Shown here: positions 3,037-47,058 of the stretch, in pieces
Numbering within the stretch: the first letter of the stretch is position 1
Layout: every line of letters starts with the position of its first letter
Source: an uncultured Candidatus Saccharibacteria bacterium
GTDB taxonomy: Bacteria; Patescibacteriota; Minisyncoccia; Phycocordibacterales; UBA918
NCBI GenBank assembly: GCA_964350735.1
Contig: CAYGKO010000002.1
Coordinates: forward strand, 155,566-219,565
DNA length: 64,000 bases
Reading direction: 5' to 3'
Position numbers and translations under genes: made by a program
The notes under the pieces: model-generated
What the model was told of the DNA's origin: nothing
Database searches by the model: none
Seen by the model: the letters and a program-made list of their open reading frames with translations, nothing else

Positions 3037-3267
3037 TCATGTCATTATAGCTGTTTTAGCTTTGCATAGCATCAACTAAGTTGCTATGATCTAAACACAA
3101 CTTAGTCACCTAACCCCACGTCGTGAGACATGGGCATGGTGCGAATACAAAGTCTCGACAAGAACAAAAAACCCATTGTTAAAGGGGGTCTCTTGTCGAG
3201 CTGTGTCTGGGAAACCAGGTGCATGAGCTTCGGCTCTACCTTTTAGCAGTGGGCTTTTTGTATACCT

Positions 3268-4239
3268 ATGAAAAAAATAATCTTATCTCTATTACTCATC
3301 ACACCAGTCTTTGTTAGTGCAACTGGCTATGACTATCTCCCAGACGATGTCTGGATCAAACAGCAAGAAGAAAAATCAGAACTGGAGTTTCGTTTGCGTC
3401 AGATCGAGGCTGGTATGAGTGGAAATCTAGAAAGCTCACTACGAACCATTGAGTACCGTATCGACGAACTCGAACGAGAACTACAAACGGAAATCGGCTA
3501 TATCAAAGGTCGCTATGGGCAACTTGGTGTTGCTAACCAAATACCATCAGCGGTGGCTAAAGTTAGTTCTGAGTTTGAAGCTGAAATCTCATACCTAGAA
3601 GATGAACGCGACGAGCTAAAGAAGTTCATTCGTGAGGAAGAAGAAGCCCAAGATGCCATCGAGGCACTAGAAGCTCGTATTGCAGAGCTAGAGTCACAAT
3701 CTGTTGCCGAATCAATTCCTGCCTATACACCAACACAAACAATAGTGCGCCCTACTCCTGAAGCAATGTTTGAATACATCGATTCACTTTCACTTTCTGA
3801 AGCCTCTGCTGTATACAATGATCTGCGTCTATGGGACCCCGAGATGTATGAAGATGTGAAATACTTGATTGATCTCACCTATCCTCATGGGAAGCCAGGA
3901 TCCGCTCGTTATGAAGAATATCAAGCGGCTGAACTAGCTGATATTGCTAACTCGATACAATCTCTACAAAGTGAAATCCAGGCTGCGACAGAGCCAAAAA
4001 TAGCTCCTGAGCCGGTATATGTACCTCCAACACAACCAGAGCCTTTGCCTGAACCAGAAGTGACGGAAGAACGGAAAAACCCAGTAGCTACCTCTACTAA
4101 CGAGACGGCAACAACTACAGAGACTTTTAATTTGGAGTCCGAAGAGATATTTACCGAAGAGCCTGAGCCTGTGACACCAGTACAAGCACAACCGGGTTTT
4201 CTCTCCCGGGTGGTGAATTTCTTCAAGAGCTGGTTTTAA
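3268..4239 (+). CDS. Secreted coiled-coil, proline-rich protein.
   Basis: N-terminal signal peptide MKKIILSLLLITPVFVSA. Followed by heptad-like E/L/R-rich segments and a C-terminal PEP/PEPEV proline-rich region. Confidence 0.5.
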   Translation: MKKIILSLLLITPVFVSATGYDYLPDDVWIKQQEEKSELEFRLRQIEAGMSGNLESSLRTIEYRIDELERELQTEIGYIKGRYGQLGVANQIPSAVAKVSSEFEAEISYLEDERDELKKFIREEEEAQDAIEALEARIAELESQSVAESIPAYTPTQTIVRPTPEAMFEYIDSLSLSEASAVYNDLRLWDPEMYEDVKYLIDLTYPHGKPGSARYEEYQAAELADIANSIQSLQSEIQAATEPKIAPEPVYVPPTQPEPLPEPEVTEERKNPVATSTNETATTTETFNLESEEIFTEEPEPVTPVQAQPGFLSRVVNFFKSWF

Positions 4240-6032: not shown

Positions 6033-9000
6033 TTGAATAAATGCTATATAACTACACAAAAGCCTATTATGCTAAAGGACACAATCATAAATATAGTTTC
6101 ACCGGATGAGTTTGAGAATCTTTGCCAACAAATACTTGTTGCAGAGTTTCCAGACTTCGAGGTAATTGATGACAGCTCAGGTGACGGTGGTAATGATGGC
6201 TATAGTGCTAGTGAAAAAACACTTTGGCAGCTTTACTGTCCTAAAAAAGATAATTTGTCGATAAAGGAGCAAAGAGAGCGATACCAGGCAAAGATCAGAA
6301 CCGACTTGGCTAAGGCAGCAAAACTTAAGAGCGAAAAAGGGTACGAGATAGATAGATGGATTTTTACAACAACAAAACCACTTACAGAAGAATTACACAC
6401 TTATCTAAGGAATAAAGCCGGGGATTACGGCTTTGCCTGTTCAGTGTGGTCGTCAAAAAAACTAAATGAGTTGCTGTCAAAACACTCACATGTACAGGAT
6501 TTGTTTCCAGACTTAGTTTTAGCAAAAACTCACGAGCTGGTTGAGGAAGTTAAGGCAAACCAAAAAAGTGTTGCCGACTCAGAAGCAAAAGGAAAACAAA
6601 CTCTCAATTCCGCGTTTAAGAAAAGAATTGACGAGGCCAGAGATCGGTTAAATGTTGGCAATGCCGCAAGCGCAAAGGAGTCATACATGAGAATCTTGGA
6701 TGACATGAGTGAATATCCGTCTGAGATAGATCAGCATCTACTCTTCAGAGCAAAGAATAACCTAGGAAATGCTGAACAGATTCTCGGGAATTACCCAGAG
6801 GCTGTCAGATTATTCAGAGAAGCTTTTGAGCACGATCCAAATAATAAGGTTGCGATACTGAATCAGGCATTAGCATTAACACTCGAAGAAAAGTATGAAG
6901 AAGCATTAGGCTATCTAGAAACTATTTCTGCTGACTACGGTACTGATAATCACTACATTGTTATCAGATGCAATACTCTCAAAATGCTCGGTAGATATTC
7001 AGATTTATACGAATATTTAGGACCTCTGTCCAAACCAAAATTACTTTTAACATACAGGGCTTTTGAACAACAAGACGCAGGAAATTCAAAAGAGGCCCTT
7101 CATTTTTTTGAAGAGGTTTTAAAAATTGAGCGTGGCAATCAAGAAGCTCTTGAAGGTGCCACCCACTCCGTTTTATTTGGTTATAAAGATGATTTGCGTA
7201 ACGGAACTTTGCCTGAATACATGTTGAAGCCAGAGCTGCGTGAAATATTCCAAAAGACTGAGTCATGGATCAAACAGTTAATTGAAATATACAAATTCAA
7301 TAACGAGACTCAAAAGATTGAGGCGGGCTACACAAACCTGGCAGCAGCACAGTTAGCTTTGTCTGACTATCAAACAGCACTCAGATCGGCTCAAAAAGCG
7401 CTCGACTATGACGCTACTTCAATGGTTGCGTGGCAAAACAAAGGTATATGTGAACTGAAACTAAATAACTACAAAGATTGTCTACACAGCCTAAAACAAT
7501 TCGTTGTTTACGGGGGTGTTGAAGCTGCCGTAGCTCCTGTGCTGGCTATGTGTGCACGAGAGATCAATGATCATGATCTGACTATTGAATACGGTGAAAA
7601 ATATTTGCATGTTGATGGAACTATAGATATTGAGATGGCAGAAATTCTAATTGGCGTTTATGCGAACGATCTTAATACGGAGAAAGTTGAGCGAATTCTA
7701 AACGAACTTAAGGACTCTCACCCAGATGATAGTTCAGCGAATAGAGTAATTGGAAATTTTTATAGCAAGCGAGGTTTAGACGACGCTTTATCTCACTTAG
7801 AGAAAGCTATAGCTAAAGCACAAAACCCAACAGATAAAATGATGGCTGAAGTAGCGCTTGCTGACCACCATTTTAAGAGCAGTGACTATAACAAAGCAGC
7901 TGATTTATACGAAAAATATATTGATAAAGATGAAGCACGTTTTGTAACAATAAAATACTTACGCTCTCTTTATCGAGCTGGTAAATATGGTCAGTTATTG
8001 AAAGAGGTGTCAGAGTTCGGTGACAGCGCTAAAAACATTGAGCAGGTTTTAGAGCTTGAAGCACATGCAAATCTAACATTGCAAAACATTGAAATTGCAG
8101 CCAGAAAGTTTAAAAAACTTTATACCAATACCGGAAATACGGACTACGTTATTAATTATGGGTTATGCGAAATTAGACAAAAGAACACCGACAAAGCAAA
8201 AAGCGCTTATGATGCTGCAAGGTCACAAGCTAAAGACATTAACGACTGGATGTCGTTAGCACATGGCTACACCGCGTTAGGTGACTGGGCCTCAGCAATT
8301 GACTTGGTTCATAAAAGCTACGAACAAGACCCTAATGACCCAGAAATAATGAAGTCTTATATATGGATATTTCTATTTTCTGAACAAGCTAGTGATATTG
8401 AAAGTAACGAGAAGCATGTGAAAACATTTCAAGAAATCAGTGTTAAATACGGTGAAAGGTTTCCTGATCAAGAAGACTTGCGAAGCATAAAGATTCAAGG
8501 TGATGATGTGACACCTATTTTAGAGATGATTAAATCTGTCTCGGAAAACGCTCAGCAGGCCCAAACCTTTTACTCAGAATCAAAAGCACCACTGTCCTTT
8601 ATTCCAAACATGACTGGCAGAAGTCCACTGGTTGTTTGGAATGCTTTTACTGCTGACAGTCAAACTGGTATTCAGTCAAATTTTGGGAGCGAAGACGAGA
8701 CAGTGTACGAACAAAAAACACTGAAAGAAACATCAAACCTACAGACTGTTATTGATATATACCCGATTCTGTTACTGCACCGAACAGGCTTCTTAGAAGA
8801 GGTTCTGGGTAATTTTAAAAAAGTTTACATCCACCAAAGCGTCCTTGATAACCTTAATGCTTCAATTAATGACGAACGGCTCGCTTTGAAAAACGGACAA
8901 GAAACTATCGGTTACAACAATGGCCAGTTTGTGATGACTGAGATGAGTGTTGAACAAATCTCGAAATCAGTCGAAAATGTAGAGACATTAATTGAAAAAA

Positions 9001-9626
9001 TTAAATCGTTACCAAATGTTGAAATAAGAGGCTTTGAGTCTGAAACTGATAACGTCGAGACTGATTTTCTCAATAAGCTTCATACCACGACAAGAAGTTC
9101 AGCATATCTAGCTAAGCAACTAGGCATACCGTTTTATACAGACGACAAGATAGTGCGTGCTGTCCTTAAGTCTGATGAAGTATATTCTTTCTCAACATAT
9201 GGCCTACTAACCCACCTTGCGTCTGAAGGTAAGATCACGGACGACCATTACCATTCACTTCACAAGCAAATGCTTGAGTTGGGCTACACATACGTACCTA
9301 TTAATGCCAAAATGATTTTTTATGAGCTGGTCAAAGAGATGAGTATCGAATCAATCGAAATTTATGCCAGAAACATCGCAAAACCTGAAACCACATTACC
9401 TTCAGTAACAGTTGTCTTGAGTGAGTTACTACTCTTTCTCTTAGCTGAAACTGCGATTCCAAACTCTACAAAAAAACAAGCTTTTCAGAGAATGTTGTCA
9501 GAGATAAAAGAAAATCACGATGTGCAAAATATAAGAGAAGGTATATCGTTGATTCTTGGAAAAAATTTAGACAGCACACAAAAAGTCTTTGTAGACCAAT
9601 TACTCGATACTCTTATTGGAAGGTAG
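6033..9626 (+). CDS. Large multidomain protein (1197 aa). N-terminal Mrr-like PD-(D/E)xK restriction-endonuclease domain, a long TPR-repeat array, and a C-terminal domain with PIN-like acidic motifs.
   Basis: The N-terminus FENLCQQILVAEFPDFEVIDDSSGDGGNDG ... LWQLYCPKK ... RWIFTTTKPLTEEL matches the Mrr_cat pattern (FExl..ll..mGy.v ..gDgGiD .. vQcKry .. ifvTt). Many 34-residue A/L/Y/N-rich repeats span roughly residues 200-800. The C-terminal region has VIDIYPILLL and FYTDDKIV acidic motifs. Confidence 0.6.
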   Translation: MNKCYITTQKPIMLKDTIINIVSPDEFENLCQQILVAEFPDFEVIDDSSGDGGNDGYSASEKTLWQLYCPKKDNLSIKEQRERYQAKIRTDLAKAAKLKSEKGYEIDRWIFTTTKPLTEELHTYLRNKAGDYGFACSVWSSKKLNELLSKHSHVQDLFPDLVLAKTHELVEEVKANQKSVADSEAKGKQTLNSAFKKRIDEARDRLNVGNAASAKESYMRILDDMSEYPSEIDQHLLFRAKNNLGNAEQILGNYPEAVRLFREAFEHDPNNKVAILNQALALTLEEKYEEALGYLETISADYGTDNHYIVIRCNTLKMLGRYSDLYEYLGPLSKPKLLLTYRAFEQQDAGNSKEALHFFEEVLKIERGNQEALEGATHSVLFGYKDDLRNGTLPEYMLKPELREIFQKTESWIKQLIEIYKFNNETQKIEAGYTNLAAAQLALSDYQTALRSAQKALDYDATSMVAWQNKGICELKLNNYKDCLHSLKQFVVYGGVEAAVAPVLAMCAREINDHDLTIEYGEKYLHVDGTIDIEMAEILIGVYANDLNTEKVERILNELKDSHPDDSSANRVIGNFYSKRGLDDALSHLEKAIAKAQNPTDKMMAEVALADHHFKSSDYNKAADLYEKYIDKDEARFVTIKYLRSLYRAGKYGQLLKEVSEFGDSAKNIEQVLELEAHANLTLQNIEIAARKFKKLYTNTGNTDYVINYGLCEIRQKNTDKAKSAYDAARSQAKDINDWMSLAHGYTALGDWASAIDLVHKSYEQDPNDPEIMKSYIWIFLFSEQASDIESNEKHVKTFQEISVKYGERFPDQEDLRSIKIQGDDVTPILEMIKSVSENAQQAQTFYSESKAPLSFIPNMTGRSPLVVWNAFTADSQTGIQSNFGSEDETVYEQKTLKETSNLQTVIDIYPILLLHRTGFLEEVLGNFKKVYIHQSVLDNLNASINDERLALKNGQETIGYNNGQFVMTEMSVEQISKSVENVETLIEKIKSLPNVEIRGFESETDNVETDFLNKLHTTTRSSAYLAKQLGIPFYTDDKIVRAVLKSDEVYSFSTYGLLTHLASEGKITDDHYHSLHKQMLELGYTYVPINAKMIFYELVKEMSIESIEIYARNIAKPETTLPSVTVVLSELLLFLLAETAIPNSTKKQAFQRMLSEIKENHDVQNIREGISLILGKNLDSTQKVFVDQLLDTLIGR

Positions 9627-9858
9627 AACAACTTTTCACTTTGATTTATTTTGAAAACTAGTCGCAAAAAATATACGAAGTAAAAATTCTTAGAAAGTTT
9701 GGAAAATGGGGGTTGTTGCTATATGACACTAGTGACAGACTAACTCAAATTTCTAACTGAGAGAGTGAAAATATTGTTGATTTGATGTATTCAGTGCTTT
9801 CCCCAAGTTCGGAAAGCCAGTATAATGGGTCACCAAAGGGGTCACACGACCCAATTAG

Positions 9859-9887
9859 AAAAAACCGCCAGAAATGGCGGTTTTTTC
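9859..9887. terminator. Bidirectional rho-independent terminator.
   Basis: A-run, then stem ACCGCCA, loop GAAA, stem TGGCGGT, then T6. It sits after the 1197-aa gene and ahead of the minus-strand RAYT. Confidence 0.5.
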
Positions 9888-10087
9888 TGTAGGCACTTTA
9901 TCGAAATGCATTCACCCTCGCAGGGTCCCGAACTTTTCAGTTCTGGTCTCGCTGATGTCGTCCCCCCAGTTTTCAGGGTCCGTGACCCAAGGTCAAGAAT
10001 TGTCTCGCTCCATACGACGGTAGACGCGTTTGATCAGTTCAAGATGGCGACGCAGATGTTCATCTTTGTTCATAAGGTTCGATTTAC

Positions 10088-10866
10088 GGGGAAATGGTGT
10101 CAGCGGGGAAATGGTGTCAGGGGAAATGGTGTCAGGTACCTTTTATCGGCCTCCCTCTCCCTCGTACCGTCATGCTCAGCTTGTGTCTATCAATCATAGT
10201 GTCTGACCATACATCAGAGCCAAAGGGCTTCCCCTTATTCACCGCATTTCTAGCAGCTTCTAGTTCTGCTGCTGTCAGGGGTAACTGGAGAAAATCTAAG
10301 TAGTTGTTTGGCAATGAAACCGGAGGTGAAGATACTATCGTACTTTTAATGGTATGGAGTCTTTGGTATGCACTGGAATACTTCCAGTTCTGAATATTTT
10401 TAACTAGCTTCGCCCGCAGCGGGTTTCTTTCAACGTAGCGAATGACTGTTAAGAGGTGCTGATCTTGCTGAATTAAAAAAGATTTGTATCTTCCTTGGTA
10501 CAAGGAACCTGAACCAATAGTTTTATTCTGTACATGCCATCGCTGTGTATGAGTGAGCGTGAGCCATTGCATGAACTTCTGTAGATCACCATCTTTTCTT
10601 GGGTGAAGCACGAGATGAAAATGATTAGGCATAATACAATACGCCAATACACGCATGTCGTATTTTTCAACACCATCCTCTAGAATAGACTCAAAGAGTT
10701 TGAAATCTTCTTCTTTGAAGAAGATTTGTAGCCTTGCATTAGCCCTATTAATGATGTGATAGATTTCACCTCCAATATCTACTCTTGGTACCCTTCCCAT
10801 ATGTTACTATAGTAACATAAAAGGTACCTGACACCATTTCTGCTGACACCATTTCTGACATTTCTG
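10088..10866. mobile_element. REP-flanked RAYT / IS200-IS605-like element. A Y1 transposase gene is bracketed by multi-copy inverted GAAATGGTGTCAG repeats.
   Basis: Left end has 3 tandem copies of GGGGAAATGGTGTCAG (10088-10135). Right end has 2+ inverted copies of CTGACACCATTTC (10828-10866). The terminal 18-mers GAAATGGTGTCAGGTACC (10123-10140) and GGTACCTGACACCATTTC (10823-10840) are perfect reverse complements. Confidence 0.65.
10132..10800 (-). CDS. tnpA: HuH-Y1 transposase (REP-associated tyrosine transposase / IS200-like TnpA, COG1943 type).
   Basis: HuH motif MPNHFHLVL and catalytic-Tyr motif YVERNPLRA. N-terminal R.PR...GEIYHIINRANARLQIFFKEEDF matches the RAYT N-terminal pattern. Confidence 0.75.
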   Translation of the reverse strand: MGRVPRVDIGGEIYHIINRANARLQIFFKEEDFKLFESILEDGVEKYDMRVLAYCIMPNHFHLVLHPRKDGDLQKFMQWLTLTHTQRWHVQNKTIGSGSLYQGRYKSFLIQQDQHLLTVIRYVERNPLRAKLVKNIQNWKYSSAYQRLHTIKSTIVSSPPVSLPNNYLDFLQLPLTAAELEAARNAVNKGKPFGSDVWSDTMIDRHKLSMTVRGRGRPIKGT

Positions 10867-10965
10867 CACTCAATTCTTCCCACAACATTAGTTTCCATCC
10901 TTAATTAATGACAGAACGGTTGATGGTGCAAAGCTATGCAGAACTAAGAAAACATCGCACATTCA

Positions 10966-25727: not shown

Positions 25728-27626
25728 CTATTTTAATAGCTCAAACTGACTCGTCAGTCTCTCTACTTCACTTTGCTCACCAAAGAGTTGGATACCAAGG
25801 AATTCAATATTCTTGAGATCTTTCTCAGCGGTATTGGTTTTTACCTTATTATCATTGGTGGTTTCGATCATTTCCTGCGTGAAGGTAGTCACGCGCACAT
25901 CAGCTGACTCAGCTACTTCAAGTAATGCCTGCAGATCATGGTTGCTATCGCACTCTTTCACCATAATGGCGTGCTGAATATTCATCGGGATTTGCTTGGC
26001 GTCTTTGGTGGCGATGGTATCAAACTTCAAAAGCCCCTTCCCTTCACGAGCACCGAGAGCGGCTGCTAGGTGAGCGGCGGTATTGGTTAGTTGCCAAAGT
26101 TCCATATCGTTCTTCCGCACGACCATCACTGACACTTTGTTACTTTTCTTCTTAGACTTCCCTTCGCCCTTAGGCTTCATCAGTGGGAAATACTGTGTCT
26201 CGCGGATTGGTTTATCCATTAGGTAGGCAAAAAAGCGTTCACCAAGTGTTGCAGCTCCAAAGGTTGGTGGCATACCATATTCGAGCATCTCAACGAACTC
26301 CCAGTCCGGCATCATCGCTTCGTCGTCACCGCGCGCGATCAATTCTTCTTGTACCTTAAAGCGCTCTGCTTGGTCGATAGGATCATTTAACTCCGCGTAA
26401 CAGTTATTAAATTCTGCTCCCGCCATAATAAGCTGAGCTCGAAGCACTTGCCCTTTATTATTCGGATCTTCTTTAGACAACGCTGAAACCAACTTTGGGT
26501 GGCCAATAAGCCACACTGGCCCAGCAATCGACTTGCGGCAGTACTTCCACAGCGTATCCATTAAGCGCTCACGGTTATTACCATCAAACTCAATCCCCAG
26601 TTCAGCCGCAGTAGCGGCCATCTCGACTTCAGTAGCTGAAGTAACATCAATACCAGTCTTTTGCTTGATCGTATCAACGTAATCAATCCGTTCAAACGGT
26701 TTGCTAAAATCTACGTCAAAACCTTTGATAGAAAATTGTTGCTTACCAGCAAAGGCTTCGTCGAGCACATACTTGATATGTCGCTCCAAGAGTACTAAGC
26801 CTTCCTCGAAGCTCATATACGCTGCGTAAAACTCAATATTGGTGAATTCCTGCAAGTGGTCTGGACTGGAACCTTCGTTTCGGTACACACGGCCAACTTC
26901 AAAGGTACGCGGAATGCCTGAGGCCATCAGTCGCTTCTGCCACAGCTCCCCTACAGAAATACGCAAGAACGCATCAATGCCGTAGTCATTATGATGCGTT
27001 GCAAACGGAGTAGCTTCAGCACCACCAGTTGTGGTCTCCAGAGTTGGTGTATGCACCTCCATAAAGCCTTCAGCTTCCATAAACGCGCGAGATGCTTTCC
27101 AAAACTTAGCTTTTGTATCAAATAACGCTCGTAAATCTGGATCAAGTAGAATATCCAGATAGCGCTTGCGGTAGCGCTCTTCTTCGTCTTTAATGCCGAA
27201 ATGTTCAGTTGGCGGATTATTCAAAGCTTTTGTGAGCACCTGCCAGTCCGATACAGCAATTGCTTCAGCGCCGCGCTTGGTTACAAATGGCACTCCTTTC
27301 ACTTCAATAAAATCTCCGGGATCGATCGTATCATTAAGCAGTTCGAACAATCGGACTCCGATCGCATCTTTGGAGAGAAACATTTGCATCCGGGCCGTAC
27401 CATCAAAAATATCAGCAAAAGCTGAACCACCGTGACGTCTGAGCGCCATTACCCGTCCAGCGACCACTACTTCAACCTCATCGTCTGCCAACGTCTCAAA
27501 ATCTGCCAGCACCTGCGAAATCGCATGCGTCCGAGTTGTCTCAGCCGCATACGGGTTCATCCCAGCCGCCGCGAGCTGATCTCGCTTTCGTAGACGTTCG
27601 GCTTTGATTTCTTCGAAGGTTGACAT
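25728..27626 (-). CDS. lysS: Lysyl-tRNA synthetase (class II) with a ~140-aa C-terminal extension resembling a PTH2-type peptidyl-tRNA hydrolase domain.
   Basis: LysRS N-terminus MSTFEEIKAERLRKRDQL, anticodon-binding and class II motifs up to FPLMKPK. A K-rich linker GEGKSKKKSNK follows. Then KVSVMVVRKNDM...TAAHLAAAL...IMVKECDSNHDLQALLEVAESADVRVTTFTQ...FLGIQLFG, which parallels PTH2 (vlvvRtDLkMgkGKiaAQcsHAa ... vvlK..de..L..L...A...gl.v..i.DAG.T....tVLgIGP). Confidence 0.8.
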   Translation of the reverse strand: MSTFEEIKAERLRKRDQLAAAGMNPYAAETTRTHAISQVLADFETLADDEVEVVVAGRVMALRRHGGSAFADIFDGTARMQMFLSKDAIGVRLFELLNDTIDPGDFIEVKGVPFVTKRGAEAIAVSDWQVLTKALNNPPTEHFGIKDEEERYRKRYLDILLDPDLRALFDTKAKFWKASRAFMEAEGFMEVHTPTLETTTGGAEATPFATHHNDYGIDAFLRISVGELWQKRLMASGIPRTFEVGRVYRNEGSSPDHLQEFTNIEFYAAYMSFEEGLVLLERHIKYVLDEAFAGKQQFSIKGFDVDFSKPFERIDYVDTIKQKTGIDVTSATEVEMAATAAELGIEFDGNNRERLMDTLWKYCRKSIAGPVWLIGHPKLVSALSKEDPNNKGQVLRAQLIMAGAEFNNCYAELNDPIDQAERFKVQEELIARGDDEAMMPDWEFVEMLEYGMPPTFGAATLGERFFAYLMDKPIRETQYFPLMKPKGEGKSKKKSNKVSVMVVRKNDMELWQLTNTAAHLAAALGAREGKGLLKFDTIATKDAKQIPMNIQHAIMVKECDSNHDLQALLEVAESADVRVTTFTQEMIETTNDNKVKTNTAEKDLKNIEFLGIQLFGEQSEVERLTSQFELLK

Positions 27627-37745: not shown

Positions 37746-40700
37746 TTATTTATTAAACGTCATCTTTTGATTATTGGTGTCATAGCCAAGCACAAGCTGT
37801 CCTTGTACAGATTTATTTTCAAGATACATTCCTAGATTCATCGAACCGTCTGTTTTTATAAATCCATTATCTGTATCGGCTTTCACATCAGCTAACATAG
37901 CCTGAAGATTAGTGCGCACCGCTTCAGGCAGTTTACTAATCTGCGTATCATTAAGCTCAATACCCTGTGCCGATAAACCAGTTATTTCAATATCGGCTAA
38001 TGCTTTTGTAGTAAGTCCTGATTCCACGCTCATCAGGCTCGCTAGCGCCATATCACGTTCTGTTAAAGCCTTGAATAGCCGCTCGATACTCGCTGCGTCA
38101 GTCACATCGTCTGACAAACGACTTACTAGTTCTCGGCCCGTATCAAATAAATTGGGTATAAACTGAGACAGGTTTTCGTTGTATCCATCACGAACTCGTT
38201 CTGTGATTTCAGCAATACTTACTTCAACAGCCGCTCGATCAGGACCCGCCGCATCAGCCCCAGCTGTTTCATAAGTCGATTCAGTCGTTGCCACCGGTTG
38301 ATTTTCAAGCGCCTCTACCAGAGGTGTTAAATTAATCGCTTCCTGTGGAATAACGTTGATGTTAGTTACATTAGCATTCATCGCCTGCATAGCTTCAGTA
38401 TTAGCTCCCACAGCTGCAATCGCCGCGTCACGCTGAACTTCTGTCACACCTGGCATATTTGATTCAAGATACCTCTGGAAAAGCTTTGTCACATCATCTC
38501 CTGACCTCGCTACGGGAGCAATCTCTGTTGGATTAATAACCGGCGTGACTTCCGTTGATACTGGTGAAGATGCTGCGTTTTCTGCAGCATAGGATAGCTC
38601 TGAAATCTTATTCATGATTGGGCTTAGATCATACGTCTCTCCTTCTTGTACTATGTCAATATTATTCGTACCAAGCGCCTCTGGGTTACTACGGAAGCTT
38701 TCAATCGCCGCTACTCGTATTTCTCGTGAGGTCTCTCCCCAAGCAGGATCGTCTGTTTCAGCTAATTTTTTAAGGATCTGATCTACTGCTTCAGTAATAT
38801 TGCAGTTTTTCGGCATGGTGAAGTTAAATGCTTCAGAGTTTTTACCAACAGTAATTTCAAGTGGCTCTATAACTTCACCTTCGGGGCCAACTGAAGTTAC
38901 GCGCTCAACCGCAGCAGGCGCAGCGGCCGCATCTGGAGAGACCGGCCTTGCCGTTGGTGCCGGAGCTTTGTCTGTTGTCACAGCACTCTGCCCTTCTAGA
39001 CCGACAACTCGCTGAACAGCAGGACCTTCAGTCAAGATATTTTCATAACGATTTCCATCAATAATTGCTGTCACTTTAGTTAATGAACCATCTGGAACAA
39101 ATGTGACTCCGGTGATATTGGTTTCAGGAGCAGCCAACAAGTTCGCATCCACGTTATCAGGGATTAAATCTGGATTGATTCGCAATCCAACACCATACAC
39201 TGATGACACTCTATCCAAACTTCCTCCAATCTGCCCCACCTCTCCTCCTTCGATACCAAACTGTCTAAGTGCCGAGATCGGTCTGTTCTCTGAATATACG
39301 ATCGAATGTGCTTCAGGAGATCCCGTGATTTGAGTAAAGCCAGCGTATGGTGAGTCTATAAGTTCCATTGCCCGCTGCTCCATTCCAGGAGACACACTAA
39401 TCCCCTCAAGCGGATCGACCGCAGTTGCTTCGAGTAGATTAGTGTTTTCAAGCTTTGGTGAAGTAGCCACGCTACTACTACCTGTTAGTTTCTCTAGAGA
39501 AACCGGGTCTTTTGCAGATCCCAAACCGTAGCCTGACCCATCCAAAAGATGTACCTCATACCCGTCAGCAGCAGAGCTCAAATAAACACTGCCAATTTCA
39601 TCAGGCACCACTGATGAAAAATTTGCACTAAGAGACAGGATTCTCTCAAGCTGCTCCGACCGAAGACCCACCAAATCATACAGACCAGGTCCATGCAGAT
39701 ACATCCCGGAAAAATTAAAAGCCCCTGAACTCAGAAGCGGATCACTAAACTTAGTAGTGTCGAATTCTTTCTCAGCTGCAAATGCCAGTATGTTGCGCTG
39801 ACCAATCCTCAGCATTCCCACTGTTTGACCTTCCAAGGTCCCTGACGTTACAGAAATTGGCAAACCTTCAATCACTAGCCCATCTTCTGTTTTGTATAAA
39901 TTCAAACCACCTGACATACCGTCAAGTCTGACATCCAATGATCCGAGATTCTGAAAACCACTTCCGTCCGCTGCAGTTCCATTATCTATCTGACCCTCAC
40001 CAGTAAAGGTTAGGTATGCGAATGTGAGACCCTCCACACCTGACACCTTTGATACTTGCCCGGTAACAGATTGCGGCTGCAGTTCTCCATTTACTAATTT
40101 AAAATCAACAAAATCAACTCCTTGTGCATTTTTCAACGTATCAGAAGCTGTACTCCCCATTAACTCCGCCAACCTTGTCATATCAAGTGTCCGGTCTGTA
40201 GTATATTCATACTCACCAGCACCACCATTACGATTATCAAGCATCACCAGTCCGTTTTCTGACACAGTCACGTTCTCAGCTTCAATACCAAACTGTGCAA
40301 ATAGTTCTTTAGCCGCTTCTGGTGACACACCACCCGACAGCCTGTCTAGCAGCTCAGTTTTACTGATTAGAGACTCAGCGCCGGTTACTTCTATATCCGC
40401 TCCACTACCTGCAACATTCTCGACAGCTCCACCTGCAGGTACTGTCGTGCCCTCACCTAAAATCGCTGCAAGATCAGCTGCGTCCACTGTTCCTGCAGCA
40501 GCTTCAGGTGCTGAGTTTTCTGCTGTCGCCGGGTCAGTTAACTGATCTAATCGAACTTGTTGCGCTGAGGTTTCATCTGTGTAGATCAACATATTCTCAA
40601 CCGATCCGTCTGACTTCACGCTGATACTGGCGATTGAGTAGTCTGATAACGCTTTACCTTCTGGAGTGAGTTTTGTTAGAAGCCCAGAACTTGGATCTAA

Positions 40701-42056
40701 TGTAACTCCGTCAGCTCGCTCAATCATGAAAGCAAATCCATCAGGATTTTCAGAAACTGTCATATTCACCTTTGCGTCCGCGTGTAAATCAATCTGCAAA
40801 TCAGGAATCAAACTTGTAATAGTCTGGGCACTTACATTTTCTGCTGCCAAAAAATTAATTGAATCAGCGCCACCTTCTGCAAACACTTGCAAATCAGCTT
40901 CACCAAACAGTGGCTGGAGCTCGCGAGTGATACCATCTAAATCTCTGGGATTAATCTCTTGTGCGAACAGTTCAGTAAGCTGTTGACGTGGAGTTTGTAC
41001 TTCAGCTTCGGGCACGGCTTCTCCTGCTGCAGTTGATTCAGCTTCAGCCTCTGATGCCGTGCCTAAGATAGCAGTCAGATCTGCAGCACTTACCACACCA
41101 GCAGGTGTAGTTTCAGATCCTGCTAGCGACTCTTGGGCTGCGGCTGACGGTGCCACAAAATCTACGACCCCAGACCACGTTGCGGAAGCTGTTTCTTTTC
41201 CTGCATCAAGTAGTGCTTGGCGTCCGGCTCCATCAAACGCCACTGAGTCAGTCATGAACGCTGTACCGATAGCATACCCAAGCCCTTTAGTCATGGCTTG
41301 AATATCACCAGAACGAACCGCTTTTGCCCAACCTTGCAGCCCTTGCACAAAGACAGTATTAGCATTCACTTTAATCTGTTCAGCTTTTTCACGAGCATGC
41401 TGCGCGTGCCGCTCGGCCAGCACTTGATTGACTCGCTTCAGTGTATCGACCGCTGCCCGGGCAACCGTAGCCGCTCCAGCACCAAGTCCTCCAGTAGCCA
41501 AACCAAGCGCTAAGATAATTGGGGTGGTGGCTTTCTCGGCAACATTGAGTCGTTGGTTCCAGTCCTCATTGCTAATTGATTTTTGAATCCCTTCTCGAGC
41601 GCCAGCATGACGAGTACGGTTGGCCCACAGAATCTGTGCCAAAACTTTACGCTGTTCAGCGGCTTCTGCTTTTGGTAGCTGATCAATCACGCTCCGAAGT
41701 TCTGAGAGCGTCTGTAACATCTCAATACGCTCACTACTGTCAACTCGTGCTGCTTCATCTTCTCCCCAGACACCCTTTTCTGTACGCAACTTTTTTGCTA
41801 CCTGTAGCATCTTTGCCCGACGTTCGACTAGATTAAACGCCAGTTGCTCGTGCTCCTGCATGAAACTACTCATTTCTTTAGCTTCTCCACGTGCTTTCCA
41901 AGCCGCTACTCCAGTGGCATTTTCAATAAGTGCGCGACCAAGCTTTGCACCACCTTCCATGACGCGTTTTCGGTCGAGCGCCAAAAGTCGCTGCAGCCAT
42001 GATGACTTACCTACTGTTTCTGCTGCCGATGATGACATTGTTCCTTCAAGAGCCAT
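37746..42056 (-). CDS. Giant lineage-specific protein (1436 aa) with one N-proximal hydrophobic segment. Probably a surface or secreted component of the T4SS-like locus.
   Basis: Uninterrupted 4.3-kb ORF, translationally coupled to its neighbours. Hydrophobic stretch TTPIILALGLATGGLGAGAATVARAA. The remainder is A/T/S/G/E-rich with beta-rich segments. Confidence 0.5.
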   Translation of the reverse strand: MALEGTMSSSAAETVGKSSWLQRLLALDRKRVMEGGAKLGRALIENATGVAAWKARGEAKEMSSFMQEHEQLAFNLVERRAKMLQVAKKLRTEKGVWGEDEAARVDSSERIEMLQTLSELRSVIDQLPKAEAAEQRKVLAQILWANRTRHAGAREGIQKSISNEDWNQRLNVAEKATTPIILALGLATGGLGAGAATVARAAVDTLKRVNQVLAERHAQHAREKAEQIKVNANTVFVQGLQGWAKAVRSGDIQAMTKGLGYAIGTAFMTDSVAFDGAGRQALLDAGKETASATWSGVVDFVAPSAAAQESLAGSETTPAGVVSAADLTAILGTASEAEAESTAAGEAVPEAEVQTPRQQLTELFAQEINPRDLDGITRELQPLFGEADLQVFAEGGADSINFLAAENVSAQTITSLIPDLQIDLHADAKVNMTVSENPDGFAFMIERADGVTLDPSSGLLTKLTPEGKALSDYSIASISVKSDGSVENMLIYTDETSAQQVRLDQLTDPATAENSAPEAAAGTVDAADLAAILGEGTTVPAGGAVENVAGSGADIEVTGAESLISKTELLDRLSGGVSPEAAKELFAQFGIEAENVTVSENGLVMLDNRNGGAGEYEYTTDRTLDMTRLAELMGSTASDTLKNAQGVDFVDFKLVNGELQPQSVTGQVSKVSGVEGLTFAYLTFTGEGQIDNGTAADGSGFQNLGSLDVRLDGMSGGLNLYKTEDGLVIEGLPISVTSGTLEGQTVGMLRIGQRNILAFAAEKEFDTTKFSDPLLSSGAFNFSGMYLHGPGLYDLVGLRSEQLERILSLSANFSSVVPDEIGSVYLSSAADGYEVHLLDGSGYGLGSAKDPVSLEKLTGSSSVATSPKLENTNLLEATAVDPLEGISVSPGMEQRAMELIDSPYAGFTQITGSPEAHSIVYSENRPISALRQFGIEGGEVGQIGGSLDRVSSVYGVGLRINPDLIPDNVDANLLAAPETNITGVTFVPDGSLTKVTAIIDGNRYENILTEGPAVQRVVGLEGQSAVTTDKAPAPTARPVSPDAAAAPAAVERVTSVGPEGEVIEPLEITVGKNSEAFNFTMPKNCNITEAVDQILKKLAETDDPAWGETSREIRVAAIESFRSNPEALGTNNIDIVQEGETYDLSPIMNKISELSYAAENAASSPVSTEVTPVINPTEIAPVARSGDDVTKLFQRYLESNMPGVTEVQRDAAIAAVGANTEAMQAMNANVTNINVIPQEAINLTPLVEALENQPVATTESTYETAGADAAGPDRAAVEVSIAEITERVRDGYNENLSQFIPNLFDTGRELVSRLSDDVTDAASIERLFKALTERDMALASLMSVESGLTTKALADIEITGLSAQGIELNDTQISKLPEAVRTNLQAMLADVKADTDNGFIKTDGSMNLGMYLENKSVQGQLVLGYDTNNQKMTFNK

Positions 42057-42058
42057 AG

Positions 42059-42352
42059 CTATGTAGTTGGTTGTTTAAGATCTGCTAATAACGCATTCAG
42101 TTCAGCTGTAGTCATTGCATCAATATCTGCGGCCTCTGCTTGGTATTCAGGAATTGATTCCGCAGCCTTTTGTTCAAGCACAGCCCGATATACAAGATCT
42201 ACCATTTCCGCCAAATGCTCTGGCTCCATTGTTTTGGCAAGTTCTACAAACACATCTTTAATATACGGTGGCACATCAAGCTCATCCAAAAGCCAGCCAA
42301 ACACTCGTCCTAGTGCCTCTAAATCTTGTACCGCTTGAGGATCAGAATTCAT
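42059..42352 (-). CDS. Small acidic helical protein (97 aa) between the 922-aa and 1436-aa genes. Chaperone-like.
   Basis: 97 aa, D/E-rich, no TM. 3-nt and 7-nt gaps to its neighbours indicate translational coupling. Confidence 0.35.
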   Translation of the reverse strand: MNSDPQAVQDLEALGRVFGWLLDELDVPPYIKDVFVELAKTMEPEHLAEMVDLVYRAVLEQKAAESIPEYQAEAADIDAMTTAELNALLADLKQPTT

Positions 42353-42358
42353 AAGATG

Positions 42359-45127
42359 TTATTTCTTTAAGCCATTAATGTACTCTTGTAAATCAGGCAC
42401 AGCCTCAGCAAAGCCATTGATAGCAGAAAGTGCGTCATACACTTGTTGGGCCTTTTCTGGACCAGAATCGCCCAACAAAGCTTTGATGAGATTCTGCTCA
42501 AGCTCTGGTGTGAGACCAGTAACATTTTCTGGTGTAATAAATTGATTCAGTCGGTCAGGAATATCGTTTTTGATCAGTTCACCAACATTTGGAGCCTCGC
42601 CAAGTGACACTTCCACTGGCGCAGAAGCTGTGTTTGCTGGAATGTCAGGAGCAGTATTTATGGGTGGAGAAGTCACACTTGCTTCATCAACTGCAGCGAT
42701 ATTGAAAGATTGTTCTCCGTCAAGCTGTTTAATCTCAGGCTCTGGAGCATCAGCGATCTCAGGCAATGGCGCGGGTGCCTCAGTAACTGGCCGCGGTTCA
42801 GGAGCAGGAGCCTGACTCGGAGCTGCTTCAGCAACCACCTTTGATACCTCCTCTACAACTTCAGGATCCGTTTCTCCCACCCAACCTACAAATAAATCTT
42901 TGGCAGACTCTAACGCACTTCGACCAAATACTGCTCCCGCTGCTGCCCCAGCTGCGGCTCCTGCTCCGGTAACAATTGCATTCGTAGCCAGAAATCCCCA
43001 AGAGTTGGGTTCATTAATTTTTTTCATCAACCGGAGCTCAGCTGTATCAGCAGCTTTATCTAACTTATCTTGAGCCAATAACGCTGGATTTTTTTGCCAC
43101 TGCTGTGTCCAGTGCGGCCTGAACTGATCTTCCATTCTGGCCCGTAAAGTATTTTGGTACCTTCGCCGACCAAATATCCGTCGAAACCTTAGTAGAAGTA
43201 CTGCAGCAAACGCACTACCCTCCGTCGCTCCCTGTGCTACTTCAGCTTCCATCCCTGCTATTCCATCAGCCCCATATTCGCGAGTAATAAATGGCGCTGC
43301 AACAGCACCCATCGCAACCGCAATTCCAGCCGCTCGGCTCAATGACATATACGTTCTCTTTTCATCTGCTTCTTTACCCCTGCCCCACAGTAAGAGGCTT
43401 CCAAAACGATTGTTATCAATACTATTTGCTTTTATTTGAGCCCTTTTTTCATAGTCTTGCACCACTGTAAAACCAACCAGGTTCGCACGTAGATTCTCTC
43501 GCAACACTTTCTTGTTTTTACCACCCCACAATTTTACACCTTTAGTTTTCTTTACTTCATCAATAAACGGAACGACTGTTTCTAATGTGTTTTTAATATA
43601 GGCATACCGCGCAGCTTTATACGCTGTGTATTCAGTCTCTTCTGCTTCATTTAAATCTCTACCTGCTTTGCACACATCTGACCAAGTAGTGAGCATGTCA
43701 TTTCGTTTTAAAAGGTACTCATCTTTAAACTTTTGCACTTCGGCTTCAATTTGCGGAACTCGATCTAACAAATCCCGTACAGCTGGCATGGATTCATCCT
43801 TGAACTGATTTTTAACCATTTGTTTAAGATCAAATTCGGCTGGCAGCGACGGGCCTTCGGCCAATCCTTCAGCGTTTTCAACCACAGTAGGAGTCGAGAC
43901 TGACGCTGGTTCAGACCTTTCTTCACCCCCACTATCTACACCATCACCTTCAAACGTCGGAGTTACTGTAGGTCCTAGATCCAAATCATCCGCGGCAACG
44001 GGAAGTACTGGCTCAGTTTGCCCCTGACTTGTCTCAGCAGCACCATCAATTTTGTCGAGCATACTTTTGCCATGCTCGATATTCTCATCAGTACGTGTAA
44101 GCAAACTAGCAAAGTCAGTGAGGAAAATAAGCAGTTCTTCGGTTTCATCAGAAGACAAAGCCTCAATTCCTGCAGCCACTTCTGTTCGCTTGAGGGCAGT
44201 ATAGTCTGATTCAAACCCACGTAATATTTCATACAGCTTACGTTTAGTTTCTCCTTCTTCCAGATCTTCATATGAGGACGTAAGCGAATCATACACACTA
44301 TCTATCACCCTTAATCTGTTAGCTACAATCTCACGAAGTTCTTCGCGGGTAGTTTGTATGTTAGATTCAGGCGTATGCAGTTTGGTCAGCAGAGCTATAG
44401 AGAGCATTGATGATCCTATTTCTTCTAACTCTCTGTCTTGTGAAACACCCTCTCCACCACTCTGTTTCTCTTCAAGTAACTCAGCCAAATCTTGAGTTAA
44501 CATACCCAATTCTTGACTACTACCAATAGTAGTCTGAATATCTGGTCGCTGTAGTGCTGATTTTAATTCATTATAAAATTTTTGAAGATCTTCTGCAGAA
44601 ATATGTGGACCAGCTGCTGTCTCAGTTACTGGTGGGGGCTCCACCCCCCACAACGTATCAAGCCCAAAGTATTCCAGTTCTTCAATTTCTACACCTTCAG
44701 ATTCTACACTAGCAGCTGCATCTTGTGGGGAATTTGTAAATTCAGGATCACTGACAGTTACCGCTTGTTGACGTCGGCCAGCCCCTGGTTTTGGTGCTGA
44801 CTTTACTGCTTTTGGCATCAAAATAGCAGCTGGAGCTGGCTCTTCATCAACAGCTTCGTCCGCATTACCATGCTCAAAAAATTGCTTAATTCGAGTAAGC
44901 TGGTCTAAGGTACAAACTGCTTCCGCGAGAAGATCCGGCGGAAACGCCTCCATTAATTTACTAGCCGCTTCTGAACTAACCGCAAACTGCATAATCGCAG
45001 TTTTAATTGCATTAGTATGTTCCCTACTTTCTTCAGGACTATTCAAAAGACTCTGCAGATCATCTGGCAAGGATATTTTTTCAGCTTCTCGATTATGTAT
45101 TACTTCATTCATACTGTTTTTGTTCAC
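42359..45127 (-). CDS. Large lineage-specific protein (922 aa) with two hydrophobic, Gly/Ala-rich membrane-like segments and a Pro-rich C-terminal region.
   Basis: Hydrophobic segments AAGIAVAMGAVAAPFI and GFLATNAIVTGAGAAAGAAAGAVFG. PAPEPRPVTEAPAPLPE linker. ATGA overlap with the upstream 640-aa gene. Confidence 0.45.
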   Translation of the reverse strand: MNKNSMNEVIHNREAEKISLPDDLQSLLNSPEESREHTNAIKTAIMQFAVSSEAASKLMEAFPPDLLAEAVCTLDQLTRIKQFFEHGNADEAVDEEPAPAAILMPKAVKSAPKPGAGRRQQAVTVSDPEFTNSPQDAAASVESEGVEIEELEYFGLDTLWGVEPPPVTETAAGPHISAEDLQKFYNELKSALQRPDIQTTIGSSQELGMLTQDLAELLEEKQSGGEGVSQDRELEEIGSSMLSIALLTKLHTPESNIQTTREELREIVANRLRVIDSVYDSLTSSYEDLEEGETKRKLYEILRGFESDYTALKRTEVAAGIEALSSDETEELLIFLTDFASLLTRTDENIEHGKSMLDKIDGAAETSQGQTEPVLPVAADDLDLGPTVTPTFEGDGVDSGGEERSEPASVSTPTVVENAEGLAEGPSLPAEFDLKQMVKNQFKDESMPAVRDLLDRVPQIEAEVQKFKDEYLLKRNDMLTTWSDVCKAGRDLNEAEETEYTAYKAARYAYIKNTLETVVPFIDEVKKTKGVKLWGGKNKKVLRENLRANLVGFTVVQDYEKRAQIKANSIDNNRFGSLLLWGRGKEADEKRTYMSLSRAAGIAVAMGAVAAPFITREYGADGIAGMEAEVAQGATEGSAFAAVLLLRFRRIFGRRRYQNTLRARMEDQFRPHWTQQWQKNPALLAQDKLDKAADTAELRLMKKINEPNSWGFLATNAIVTGAGAAAGAAAGAVFGRSALESAKDLFVGWVGETDPEVVEEVSKVVAEAAPSQAPAPEPRPVTEAPAPLPEIADAPEPEIKQLDGEQSFNIAAVDEASVTSPPINTAPDIPANTASAPVEVSLGEAPNVGELIKNDIPDRLNQFITPENVTGLTPELEQNLIKALLGDSGPEKAQQVYDALSAINGFAEAVPDLQEYINGLKK

Positions 45128-47046
45128 TCACTTAAATCAACATCCTGTTCACGGAAAGCTGTAATAGCATCGTTCAGATCTTTAAATGCTGCGGTCATTG
45201 CAGTAAATACCTGCTGGGCTGTCTCGAGCTCAACATCAGCATTTCCTTTCATTAATCCTTCAAAAGTTTTTTTAGCAGTCTCTAGTGCACTGAATGCGTT
45301 AAAATACGGATCGAATGTTTGTAGCTCATTGTCTTTACCCTTCAAATCACCGAGCGCTGCATCGTGTGCTTCCTGCAACTGCGCCAGATAGTATGTAGCA
45401 GTTTCTACTCGCGTATCCTGGTCGGTTAGATCTGGACAAGCAAACTGGGGCGTTTCTGATTCAATTTCTGTTCGATCAATAGCTGCCAAATGGTCCATTG
45501 GATCAGGCGGTAAGTCTCCAGAAACGGCCATATTTTCTAAAGTCGCACGCAGCTTCAAGAAACGTTGCGCAGACCCGAGCGCTTCTTGTCGCACTTGACC
45601 ACGTCCATTGCGTAGCTCTTGCAAGCGCTTATCACTACGCTTCATACCTTTAGCAATTTCTGCCTGAATTTGCTCTTCTTGTGCTCGTAATTTAGTTATC
45701 ACTTGCATTAGCGCCGGCGCGTAGGAACGTCTAATAATTTCTTCTGAAAGACCTATATGCTTGAGTACAGCAACCATATCAGCGTAGGCGTGAATATCAT
45801 CCTTAACCCCTGCCTCGTCTCTAAAGAAACCTTTACCAGAATCAAACTGCGACTCGAGTTCTGCCAATTTTTCTGGTGAATAATTACCCGTCAAATTCTC
45901 ATAAAAGGCACGGTATTCTGCCCCTGAAGACACACCAAAGCGTGGACGTAAGCGTAAATGAGGTATATCAACCAAATCAGAATTTATTTCACCAGTTGAA
46001 ATAGTGTGGATATACTGATCCGCCTTTCCGCGCACAATGATGTCGCGCATAACCTCGGTTAGTCGATCGAGGGCGGTTTTCAGTGCTACATTTCTTTCTT
46101 CTACCTGACGACGATCCCACTTTTTTCCTGTATGTAGTCGCTTAGCTTCTCGCAGCTCATTAGTGACTTGTCTAATAACTCGTTCGAATATTTGCTGTTT
46201 TCCCAGGCGATATGCTTGAGCGTTCAGATCTTCTGGATCGATCGGGAATGTTTTTTCGTACAAACGATTACACGCATCTTTAATTGCATCAGGGTCAGGC
46301 AATCGCCCTGATACATGAAAAGGATCAGGAACTTGCTCGTCATTAAGTAAATTAGCCTCGAAGTGATCGAGCGACCCTTCTTGATAGTTTTTATTCGCAT
46401 CAAGGTGTTCTGGCAACCCAGCATATTCTCCTTCTGGAATAGTGAAGAGATTTAAGCGTGAGTTTGGCCACTGTTTAGTATCTAGCAGGCGCTCATCAAT
46501 ACCATACACACTGGGATTAGTAATAATCTCCCGCATGCGTTCAACTAAAGTATCCTGTGCCGCTTTTATGTCAGTTTGTAGTGCGCGCTTCTCCGCTCTA
46601 TCTTTCACCTCCTTCGCTGTGCTGACCCCTTCTTTTATTTCATCAAAATATGGATCAAGGAAATACTGCACCAAATGATTTCGGACACTGGCCACCGCAA
46701 TACCTAAATCATCTTTGAGCAACTCCCGGAAAAATTTCGTTGCTGTCCCTCGGCCAAGAAACGCCCCCAGTTCATCACGCAGTGGATGTTGGTCTTTCTG
46801 ATTTAAAAACAACCCTTCATTGGCCAACAGTCGTCGCCTAAACTCGGTTCGTTTTGCAGTTTCTGACAGGCTTTTTTCGACATTGTCCTCAGGTGAGTCT
46901 GAAGCACCTCCTACACCAACCTCACCTTTTTGAACCTCAGGATCTTCAGGACGATCAGCAGTCCCAGTCCCTGACTCAATAACTTCAGGGTCTTTAGCTA
47001 CTGGAATAATTTGCGGCCCTGGTTCGTTTCCCCATTTCAATTTCAT
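45124..47046 (-). CDS. Hypothetical soluble alpha-helical protein (640 aa) immediately downstream of the VirB4-like ATPase.
   Basis: No TM and no HuH or P-loop motifs. Highly charged. 13-nt gap to the ATPase gene. Confidence 0.45.
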   Translation of the reverse strand: MKLKWGNEPGPQIIPVAKDPEVIESGTGTADRPEDPEVQKGEVGVGGASDSPEDNVEKSLSETAKRTEFRRRLLANEGLFLNQKDQHPLRDELGAFLGRGTATKFFRELLKDDLGIAVASVRNHLVQYFLDPYFDEIKEGVSTAKEVKDRAEKRALQTDIKAAQDTLVERMREIITNPSVYGIDERLLDTKQWPNSRLNLFTIPEGEYAGLPEHLDANKNYQEGSLDHFEANLLNDEQVPDPFHVSGRLPDPDAIKDACNRLYEKTFPIDPEDLNAQAYRLGKQQIFERVIRQVTNELREAKRLHTGKKWDRRQVEERNVALKTALDRLTEVMRDIIVRGKADQYIHTISTGEINSDLVDIPHLRLRPRFGVSSGAEYRAFYENLTGNYSPEKLAELESQFDSGKGFFRDEAGVKDDIHAYADMVAVLKHIGLSEEIIRRSYAPALMQVITKLRAQEEQIQAEIAKGMKRSDKRLQELRNGRGQVRQEALGSAQRFLKLRATLENMAVSGDLPPDPMDHLAAIDRTEIESETPQFACPDLTDQDTRVETATYYLAQLQEAHDAALGDLKGKDNELQTFDPYFNAFSALETAKKTFEGLMKGNADVELETAQQVFTAMTAAFKDLNDAITAFREQDVDLSE

Positions 47047-47058
47047 AATTAATTTTAA

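Follow-up and report, generated by a model that had tools for sequence, protein, structure and literature searches.

Positions 10087-10866 of the 64-kb stretch of contig CAYGKO010000002.1 analysed here (the window, 64,000 nucleotides in all) hold an intact, single-gene element. It consists of a transposase gene of the Y1 (HUH) type enclosed by two terminal inverted repeats (TIRs), each of which runs into an array of short repeats. A first-pass annotation had given the coordinates 10088-10866, which fit, and had called the element REPtron-like, that is, a gene for a REP-associated tyrosine transposase (RAYT) with its repetitive extragenic palindromes (REPs). We argue below that it is better read as an intact insertion sequence (IS)-like element of the TIRtron type, whose transposase genes are termed TIRYTs, and we put the probability of this reading at about 0.7. 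The parts of the element, with a strand given for those that have one, are as follows.

10087..10135: 3'-side array, (C)GGGGAAATGGTGTCAG three times in direct order, each copy made of the outer half of the 3' end hairpin and a short tail
10123..10146: 3' terminal inverted repeat, perfect 24-nt arm GAAATGGTGTCAGGTACCTTTTAT, containing GGTACC
10132..10800, minus strand: transposase gene, 222 aa, RAYT-like HUH/Y1 (TIRYT)
10801..10816, minus strand: 5' spacer, 16 nt long, reaching from the 5' end to the ATG
10817..10840: 5' terminal inverted repeat, ATAAAAGGTACCTGACACCATTTC, identical to the reverse complement of 10123-10146
10828..10866: 5'-side array, two exact copies of CTGACACCATTTCTG and one degenerate copy, in the orientation opposite to the 3' array

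Organization of the element

The 3' end (10123..10146) forms an imperfect hairpin unit in which AAATGGT and ACCTTTT stand around the loop GTCAGGT, and the gene runs into it: the inverted repeat takes in its stop codon TGA (10132-10134) and the three codons before that, which encode the C-terminal K-G-T (AAAGGTACCTGA). The innermost copy of the 3' array belongs to the inverted repeat itself, and every extra copy starts 1-2 nt before TGAC, reading outward. The 13-mer GAAATGGTGTCAG is present exactly at 10091, 10108 and 10123 on the plus strand and at 10828 and 10843 on the minus strand. Tandem Repeats Finder delimits 10087-10135 (3.0 copies, period 15/17) and 10828-10857 (2.0 copies), in agreement with the three copies on one side and two or more inverted copies on the other that had been described, and a degenerate third 5' copy, CTGAC-ATTTCTG, follows at 10855-10866. 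The perfect terminal repeat with its GGTACC, taken at first to be an 18-mer, turned out to be longer, with 24 nt perfect within an inverted repeat of 39 nt at 95% identity (10108-10146 versus 10817-10855).

The 64 kb of the window contain no further copy of the 13-mer with zero or one mismatch, and neither a second transposase gene nor a second copy of any family end. At up to two mismatches the 13-mer has seven matches against 1.5 expected, a number reached in none of 100 shuffles. A second repeat family near the element, GGGTC..GACCC (three matches, 0.08 expected), was dropped, as one match is the WVIDP coding motif of an IMPase and none fits a TIRYT end within four mismatches.

A consensus scan of the region upstream of the gene places a -10-like hexamer, TATAGT (10811..10806, or alternatively TG-n-TACTAT), in the 16-nt spacer, six nucleotides before the ATG, and a -35-like GTGTCA in the loop of the 5' end. 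Given this placement, the transposase mRNA is probably leaderless or nearly so. A perfect 20-nt palindrome at 10800-10819 (TATGTTACTA|TAGTAACATA) spans the start codon and the -10-like region, overlapping the spacer; folded as single-stranded DNA (ssDNA), it gives -5 to -6.5 kcal/mol (z about -2 to -2.7), and it is not kept in relatives.

A RAYT-like transposase with a C-terminal extension

The 222-aa protein carries the two motifs that had been recognized in it, NHFHLVL and YVERNPLRA. The HuH residues are N59-H60-F61-H62, and the catalytic Y122 lies within RYVERNP. The protein matches Pfam Y1_Tnp with 63.1 bits (cut-off 23). It scores 78.9 bits against the NCBIfam model REP_Tyr_transpos (NF047646), just under the equivalog cut-off of 80, compared with 17.8 bits against the IS200 equivalog model (NF033573), for which the cut-off is 55. 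The nearest sequence with a solved structure is E. coli TnpA_REP (4ER8), with which the HuH and Tyr motifs align. An AlphaFold (AF2) model built with 37 homologues has a mean pLDDT of 87.8 and finds 4ER8 as its top PDB match (E=6e-9, TM 0.75 on the target), followed by the TnpA proteins of ISDra2 and IS608. Judged by these comparisons, the protein is RAYT-like and not IS200-like, and here the first-pass annotation had it right. Among the 37 homologues, H60, H62, Y122 and a C-terminal G-R are invariant, as are NHFH and RYVERNP.

Residues 127-222 (about 95 aa) make up a helical extension, which is modelled confidently except for its last ~20 residues. There the protein ends in a basic, poorly ordered tail, GRGRPIKGT, which we take to resemble an AT-hook. 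The extension matches no Pfam domain, helix-turn-helix (HTH) domains included, either here or in the canonical plasmid homologues. It aligns with the tail of a 'transposase' from a P. aeruginosa plasmid that has the motifs NHVH/WE/YIELNP; from end to end, this protein and that of the window are 30% identical (E=4e-33).

Terminal inverted repeats across the family

A homologue search returned 6343 proteins, and among the best 120 listed (61-100% identical), all those with a named source come from the candidate phyla radiation (CPR): Kaiserbacteria, Nomurabacteria, Parcubacteria and Paceibacterota. The host of the window element is itself CPR-like, since the nearest named relatives of its lysyl-tRNA synthetase (LysRS) are Parcubacteria/Paceibacterota. 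We compared the flanks of seven loci found by exact look-up and of 80 metagenome loci, and the same architecture persists down to about 45% identity. A terminal inverted repeat is present in 54 of the 55 related loci with both flanks, and it is not headed by GTAG or CGTC. In close relatives 16 nt separate it from the ATG, which it precedes, and on the far side of the gene it overlaps the stop codon. The most frequent end core in relatives is GGGGTCAGG(T)ACC or GGGGACAGGGAC, and the ends of most relatives contain GGGGTCAG or GGGGACAG; the core and these motifs alike fit the consensus GGGGWSAS. The corresponding motif of the window copy, GGTGTCAG, matches this consensus at seven of eight positions. 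The P. aeruginosa plasmid gene and a relative from Iodobacter are likewise flanked by TIRs, with GGGGACAG and GGGGTCAG. Elements of this sort had been thought rarely described in CPR genomes. That is true of the literature, where a search for CPR Y1 or RAYT elements found nothing specific, but the family is common in CPR sequence data.

Each end in the family is an imperfect hairpin of about 20 nt, with an A-rich arm, a conserved loop (GGTCAGG / GG(G/T)GTCAGG) and a T-rich arm. The arms differ in sequence between subfamilies, and in 25 of 42 distinct ends they make a perfect stem of 5-9 bp, examples being AATGGT/ACCATT, AAAAGGT/ACCTTTT, AAATGGG/CCCATTT, AAAGGG/CCCTTT, TATTG/CAATA, CAAAAAG/CTTTTTG and AAAACGGTA/TACCGTTTT. 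When 27 ends are aligned, 79% of cells pair and 22 cells show double-sided changes, against 14.8+/-2.2 in shuffles; in 500 shuffles the observed value was never attained, and every slid register has a lower score. Because sequence relatedness inflates tests of co-variation, we regard the support that this gives to hairpin ends as moderate. The C-terminal residues vary together with the hairpin (KGT*, NGS*, NGG*), which shows that the constraint is on the DNA end and not on the protein tail; the inverted hairpin ends are under selection. The 13-mer of the window arrays is the loop-distal half of a REP-like imperfect palindrome and is not itself palindromic. With a T.T mismatch and a weak stem in the window copy, what is repeated is therefore the loop-distal half-unit and not the palindrome.

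Relatives move as whole units

An all-against-all BLAST search of the relatives uncovered units of 716-736 bp that share 99-100% nucleotide identity in otherwise unrelated contigs. Four groups of such units were found (L021/L023/L025; L018/L019/L024; L028/29/31/32; L044/L046), and the identity of such units starts and stops 4-7 nt outside the GGGGTCAG motif. In a further pair of loci, L021 and L022, the sequences are identical except for 1.2 kb missing from one, the indel starting exactly at the 5' end of the element. Since identical units stand in unrelated flanks, the relatives move as whole elements: for them, a unit of about 720 bp is moved or exchanged as a block, and the same would hold for the window copy.

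Reiterated half-ends

Many relatives have just a single unit, and others have arrays as the window element does. Among 42 loci whose flanks are long enough, 27 show the outer half at least twice on at least one side, and 11 do so on both; only three array copies in these loci are in the wrong orientation. The extra copies are of two kinds. Short copies (51 of 76) have their inner boundary 0-2 nt before TGAC, within the hairpin loop, whereas long copies reach 11-40 nt inward and may take in either the promoter together with the first codons or, on the other side, the final codons of the gene (L023, L033, L076, L013 and L024 are examples). All array copies in the window are of the short kind, and their inner boundary falls at a fixed point of the loop, CC|TGAC. 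In some solo ends it is the inner half that is reiterated, breaking in the same loop (GGTACCTG|..., CCTG|AC).

The arrays differ between L021, L023 and L025, although the 717-bp core of these elements is 100% identical, and they differ at one locus between strains that are 99.9% identical (L002, L003, L005). They are thus hypervariable, with no conserved copy number, and suggest a hot spot of breakage in the loop. As part of the TIRtron reading, and with the same confidence, we see the outward arrays as fast-evolving by-products of end processing rather than as conserved binding arrays.

L045 differs from the otherwise identical L044 by a 53-nt insert (L045:2909-2961) with a solo end from another subfamily (AAAGGTACTTGACCCCTTTTC), placed exactly at the 5' edge of a CCACC-type element. 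Ends belonging to different subfamilies seem to gather in one place.

Ends without a gene

Scanning a genome collection for the 18-mer end gave 73 stretches. About 27 of these have a TIRYT gene beside the match, including 13 Nitrospirales genomes and a metagenome-assembled genome (MAG) of an Acidobacteriota. The other 46 have no gene within 8 kb; about 15 of them lie inside long open frames and are mostly coding coincidences, such as DnaX KVPDTI, and 31 lie outside any long open frame. Among the gene-less stretches are solo hairpins and head-to-head miniatures with the interior deleted (L096, L114, L129, L127, L145, L135). In the related, complete 995-kb genome CP060229 the 18-mer end occurs only at the gene (L122), and three 20-kb loci of relatives hold no extra 13-mer or complete end. 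Viral contigs scanned for a 16-mer end gave three matches, which were dismissed as chance, each being without a gene or an array.

Several of the matches have features of their own. In the 13 Nitrospirales genomes (L099, L106, L109, L111, L128, L130, L138, L139, L146, L154 and others) the TIRYT is about 50% identical to the window protein and the 5' ends hold the identical 18-mer AAGGTACCTGACACCATT; the end sequence is therefore better conserved across phyla than the protein. Tail-to-tail doublets (...GGTACCTGACACCATT-n-AATGGTGTCAGGTACC...) with no gene nearby are found in Anaerobium, Neobacillus and a Bacillota MAG (L117, L148, L112), and these Firmicutes doublets would form long, REPIN-like hairpins. 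Parcubacteria GW2011_GWA2_42_14 (L147:1015-2912) has five gene-less end copies, grouped into two clusters with 1.8 kb between them, and every copy is linked to a second repeat, about 60 nt long (ATATTTTATTCCCTGAGCGAGCCGCGCGAGTCGAAGGG...).

Discussion

The names TIRtron and TIRYT were introduced by Di Nocera, De Gregorio and Rocco in 2013, who reported GGGGWSAS in the TIRs flanking RAYT-like genes (PMC3733652); the motif marks the majority TIRYT type, not all. Most TIRYTs were later placed by Quentin et al. (2018) in TnpA-Y1 subclass 2.1, which corresponds to RAYT group 1 of Bertels (PMC6006769; PMC5581495). The window element and its relatives share with TIRtrons a RAYT-like Y1 gene flanked by TIRs instead of GTAG REPs, a TIR that can overlap the 3' end of the gene, GGGGWSAS in the ends of relatives and a low copy number; both include self-complementary TIRs as well as TIRs in dimers or clusters. 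Two differences are that the motif in the window is one change away from the consensus and that the host belongs to the CPR, a group not named in the available portions of the papers that use the term (PMC3733652, PMC6006769).

With subclass 2.1, or RAYT group 1, the protein shares a HuH motif of the form NH[YF]H, the class-2 Y---NP motif (PMC6006769), a length of about 220-240 aa, a conserved C-terminal extension and the lack of canonical REPs nearby, besides full-length homology to proteins with the canonical motifs; group 1 is also the most IS-like group of RAYTs, a character shared by the window element. It departs from the subclass in two motifs that are close variants, YQ where WE/WQ/FQ is usual and YVERNP in place of YIELNP or Y[IV]HLNP, and an HTH-like domain (Bac_DnaA_C, HTH_23 or HTH_28), which would be expected, was not matched in its tail. 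Membership was judged here by motifs and homology. The end motif of relatives, the homology to canonical subclass 2.1 proteins and the TIRs of the plasmid homologues together lead us to the TIRtron assignment. TIRtron/TIRYT is the best-fitting named category, and the element is a new, intact CPR member of the kind named in 2013. Our comparative results (stem co-variation, the loop breakpoint, whole-unit mobility and abundance in CPR) are modestly new. In the available parts of the TIRtron literature (PMC3733652, PMC6006769), we found no description of half-ends reiterated in a polar manner with a fixed breakpoint in the loop, of stem co-variation, or of whole units at 99-100% identity in different flanks.

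How might such an element work? By homology to TnpA_REP and to the TnpA proteins of IS608 and ISDra2, the enzyme would cut and rejoin ssDNA through a 5'-phosphotyrosine link at Y122, with a metal held by H60 and H62. The hairpin end would be both recognition and cleavage site. The enzyme may bind the hairpin on single-stranded or extruded DNA, nick in or next to the loop and move the unit, the loop point CC|TGAC being the likely site of nicking or strand transfer. The 5' hairpin overlaps the -35 region of a putative promoter that would start transcription at or just before the ATG, so an enzyme bound to its own end would presumably also repress its own gene. Were the element to re-insert into the loop of an end already in place, subsequent recombination between the tandem copies could add one half-unit in each cycle. 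The ends being inverted, the two of them present the loop on opposite strands, which differs from IS608.

A bolder version of this model, which we consider possible though doubtful, is that the TIRtrons of this clade are autonomous insertion sequences of an unrecognised family, whose enzyme nicks in the loop (around CC|TGAC) and prefers to re-insert into the loops of resident ends. Nicking in the loop would then be closer to what a rolling-circle Rep does at its origin than to IS608. If this were true, it would explain the polar, hypervariable half-end arrays and the nested end fragments, and one could read from the arrays, as a record left by nature, where this enzyme class cleaves and which site it targets.

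Several observations weigh against reading the window element as a mobile TIRtron with hairpin ends. The end hairpin of the window copy is weak; with its mismatch it folds as ssDNA at -0.9 kcal/mol, no better than shuffles, and RNAalifold predicted no pairs for the 27 aligned ends. The case for hairpins therefore rests on the explicit pair counts and the perfect stems of relatives. The breakpoint in the loop could also arise by replication slippage at the hairpin, and loops presented in inverted orientation are at odds with 'peel and paste' on one strand, as in IS608. The identical units in different flanks come from metagenome contigs, in which assembly across repeats can create chimeric flanks, and the borders of identical copies revealed neither a target-site consensus nor a duplication; no empty site turned up. 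The available literature on the class reports no activity for any TIRYT. Finally, the element is single-copy within the 64-kb window, and this copy may be inactive or domesticated.

Among the alternatives, the one that fares best, although we think it improbable, is a strict REPtron: a domesticated, immobile RAYT that maintains and spreads a REP/REPIN family throughout the genome. Several points speak for it. The protein and its fold are closest to those of TnpA_REP, the gene is RAYT-like and bracketed by inverted palindromic units, and most relatives look single-copy. Gene-less solo ends, head-to-head miniatures and tail-to-tail doublets do occur in other genomes, most of them (31 of 46 stretches) outside long open frames. 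REPs, however, are stable hairpins (palindromes of 20-40 nt headed by GTAG or CGTC) that number in the tens to hundreds per genome, hundreds in the E. coli system, whose gene is regarded as immobile. Here there is no such head and the hairpin is weak; in relatives, the gene with its ends recurs at 99-100% identity in unrelated flanks, as a unit that moves as a whole. Solo ends number at most a few per genome and not hundreds. Nor did the genome-wide, REP/BIME-like scatter that had been suggested materialize, in the 64 kb of the window, in the three 20-kb loci of relatives or in the complete CP060229 genome.

We give marginally less weight still to the idea that the gene is a fixed regulatory or DNA-processing gene, no longer mobile, with repeats that serve as operators or as iteron-like sites of autoregulation. 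This would account for the overlap of the 5' end with a promoter-like site, for its distance from the ATG, which is conserved at 16 nt, and for the single copy in the window, and the basic GRP-type tail and helical extension seen in the structural model could bind duplex DNA. It sits poorly with arrays that vary between otherwise identical copies and with the many single-unit relatives, since copy number is therefore not conserved as it would be for a binding array. The catalytic residues are invariant, relatives move as units, and the 3' end, which needs no promoter, keeps this sequence as well. A classical IS200/IS605 insertion sequence can be set aside as very improbable: the Pfam Y1_Tnp domain, the Y1 HUH core, the fold resemblance to IS608 and ISDra2 TnpA, the likely recognition of hairpin DNA and the expected lack of a target duplication are common to both, but such elements have same-orientation subterminal hairpin ends on one strand, cleaved outside the hairpin under the guidance of a tetranucleotide, a Y---Q motif and often tnpB, whereas the window element has perfect inverted-repeat ends, as had been noted from the start, Y---NP (YVERNP; PMC6006769), no tnpB, an extension of about 95 aa that IS200 TnpA lacks, and an IS200 model score far below the cut-off.

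We favor the TIRtron reading for these reasons, and the element has some interest beyond its own locus. TIRYTs, or group-1 RAYTs, form the largest RAYT group and may be transposons or domesticated enzymes. The CPR clade is compact (about 720 bp) and abundant, and gives concrete oligonucleotide substrates together with a predicted nick site. For annotation, the element is useful in marking a rearrangement junction in a small CPR genome, and its type explains short polar repeat arrays that could otherwise be mistaken for other repeat systems.

Genomic surroundings

The element lies where synteny ends. From 10885 rightwards the window matches three relatives (L165-L167; 95% nucleotide identity) in collinear order, and the collinearity stops there, at the edge of the element. 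Beyond the break the relatives have an intact large serine recombinase (374-439 aa in L165 and L166). The window keeps only its first nine codons, METNVVGRI (10898..10872, minus strand), abutting the 5' array; the remainder was not found in the 64 kb. The synteny break and the truncated recombinase therefore put the element at a rearrangement junction, and the sequence comparison bears out the first-pass view that the region is plastic, the junction having apparently removed all but nine codons of the recombinase. The position orthologous to the element is occupied in the relatives by the intact recombinase and not by an empty site.

On the other side, a GC-richer spacer of about 200 bp (9889-10087) separates the 3' array from a bidirectional terminator (9857-9888). 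Its minus strand has a 26-codon open reading frame (ORF; MNKDEHLRRHLELIKRVYRRMERDNS) followed by a frame-shifted open stretch (PWVTDPENWGDDISETRTEKFGTLRG), and from its sequence it looks like the 3' remnant of some gene. Beyond the terminator lies the gene for a 1197-aa TPR protein with a PIN-TPR-GreABC domain (6033-9626, plus strand), a candidate defence-type protein. The block from about 6 to 16 kb, which includes the element, has a GC content of 0.37-0.39, compared with 0.43-0.50 in the rest of the window.

Farther away, the window holds a LOOT RNA (Rfam RF03000) at 3107-3237 on the plus strand, with 49.5 bits against a gathering score of 46.4; it is intergenic, upstream of the ORF at 3268-4239, and a literature search on LOOT RNA found nothing on function. 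The class II lysyl-tRNA synthetase (25728-27626, minus strand) is fused to a C-terminal DUF2000 domain, a fusion common to many of its closest homologues. Very large ORFs without a Pfam match (1436, 922 and 640 aa) occupy 37746-49848 on the minus strand, beside a 929-aa protein with type IV secretion system (T4SS) coupling-protein and HerA-like domains.

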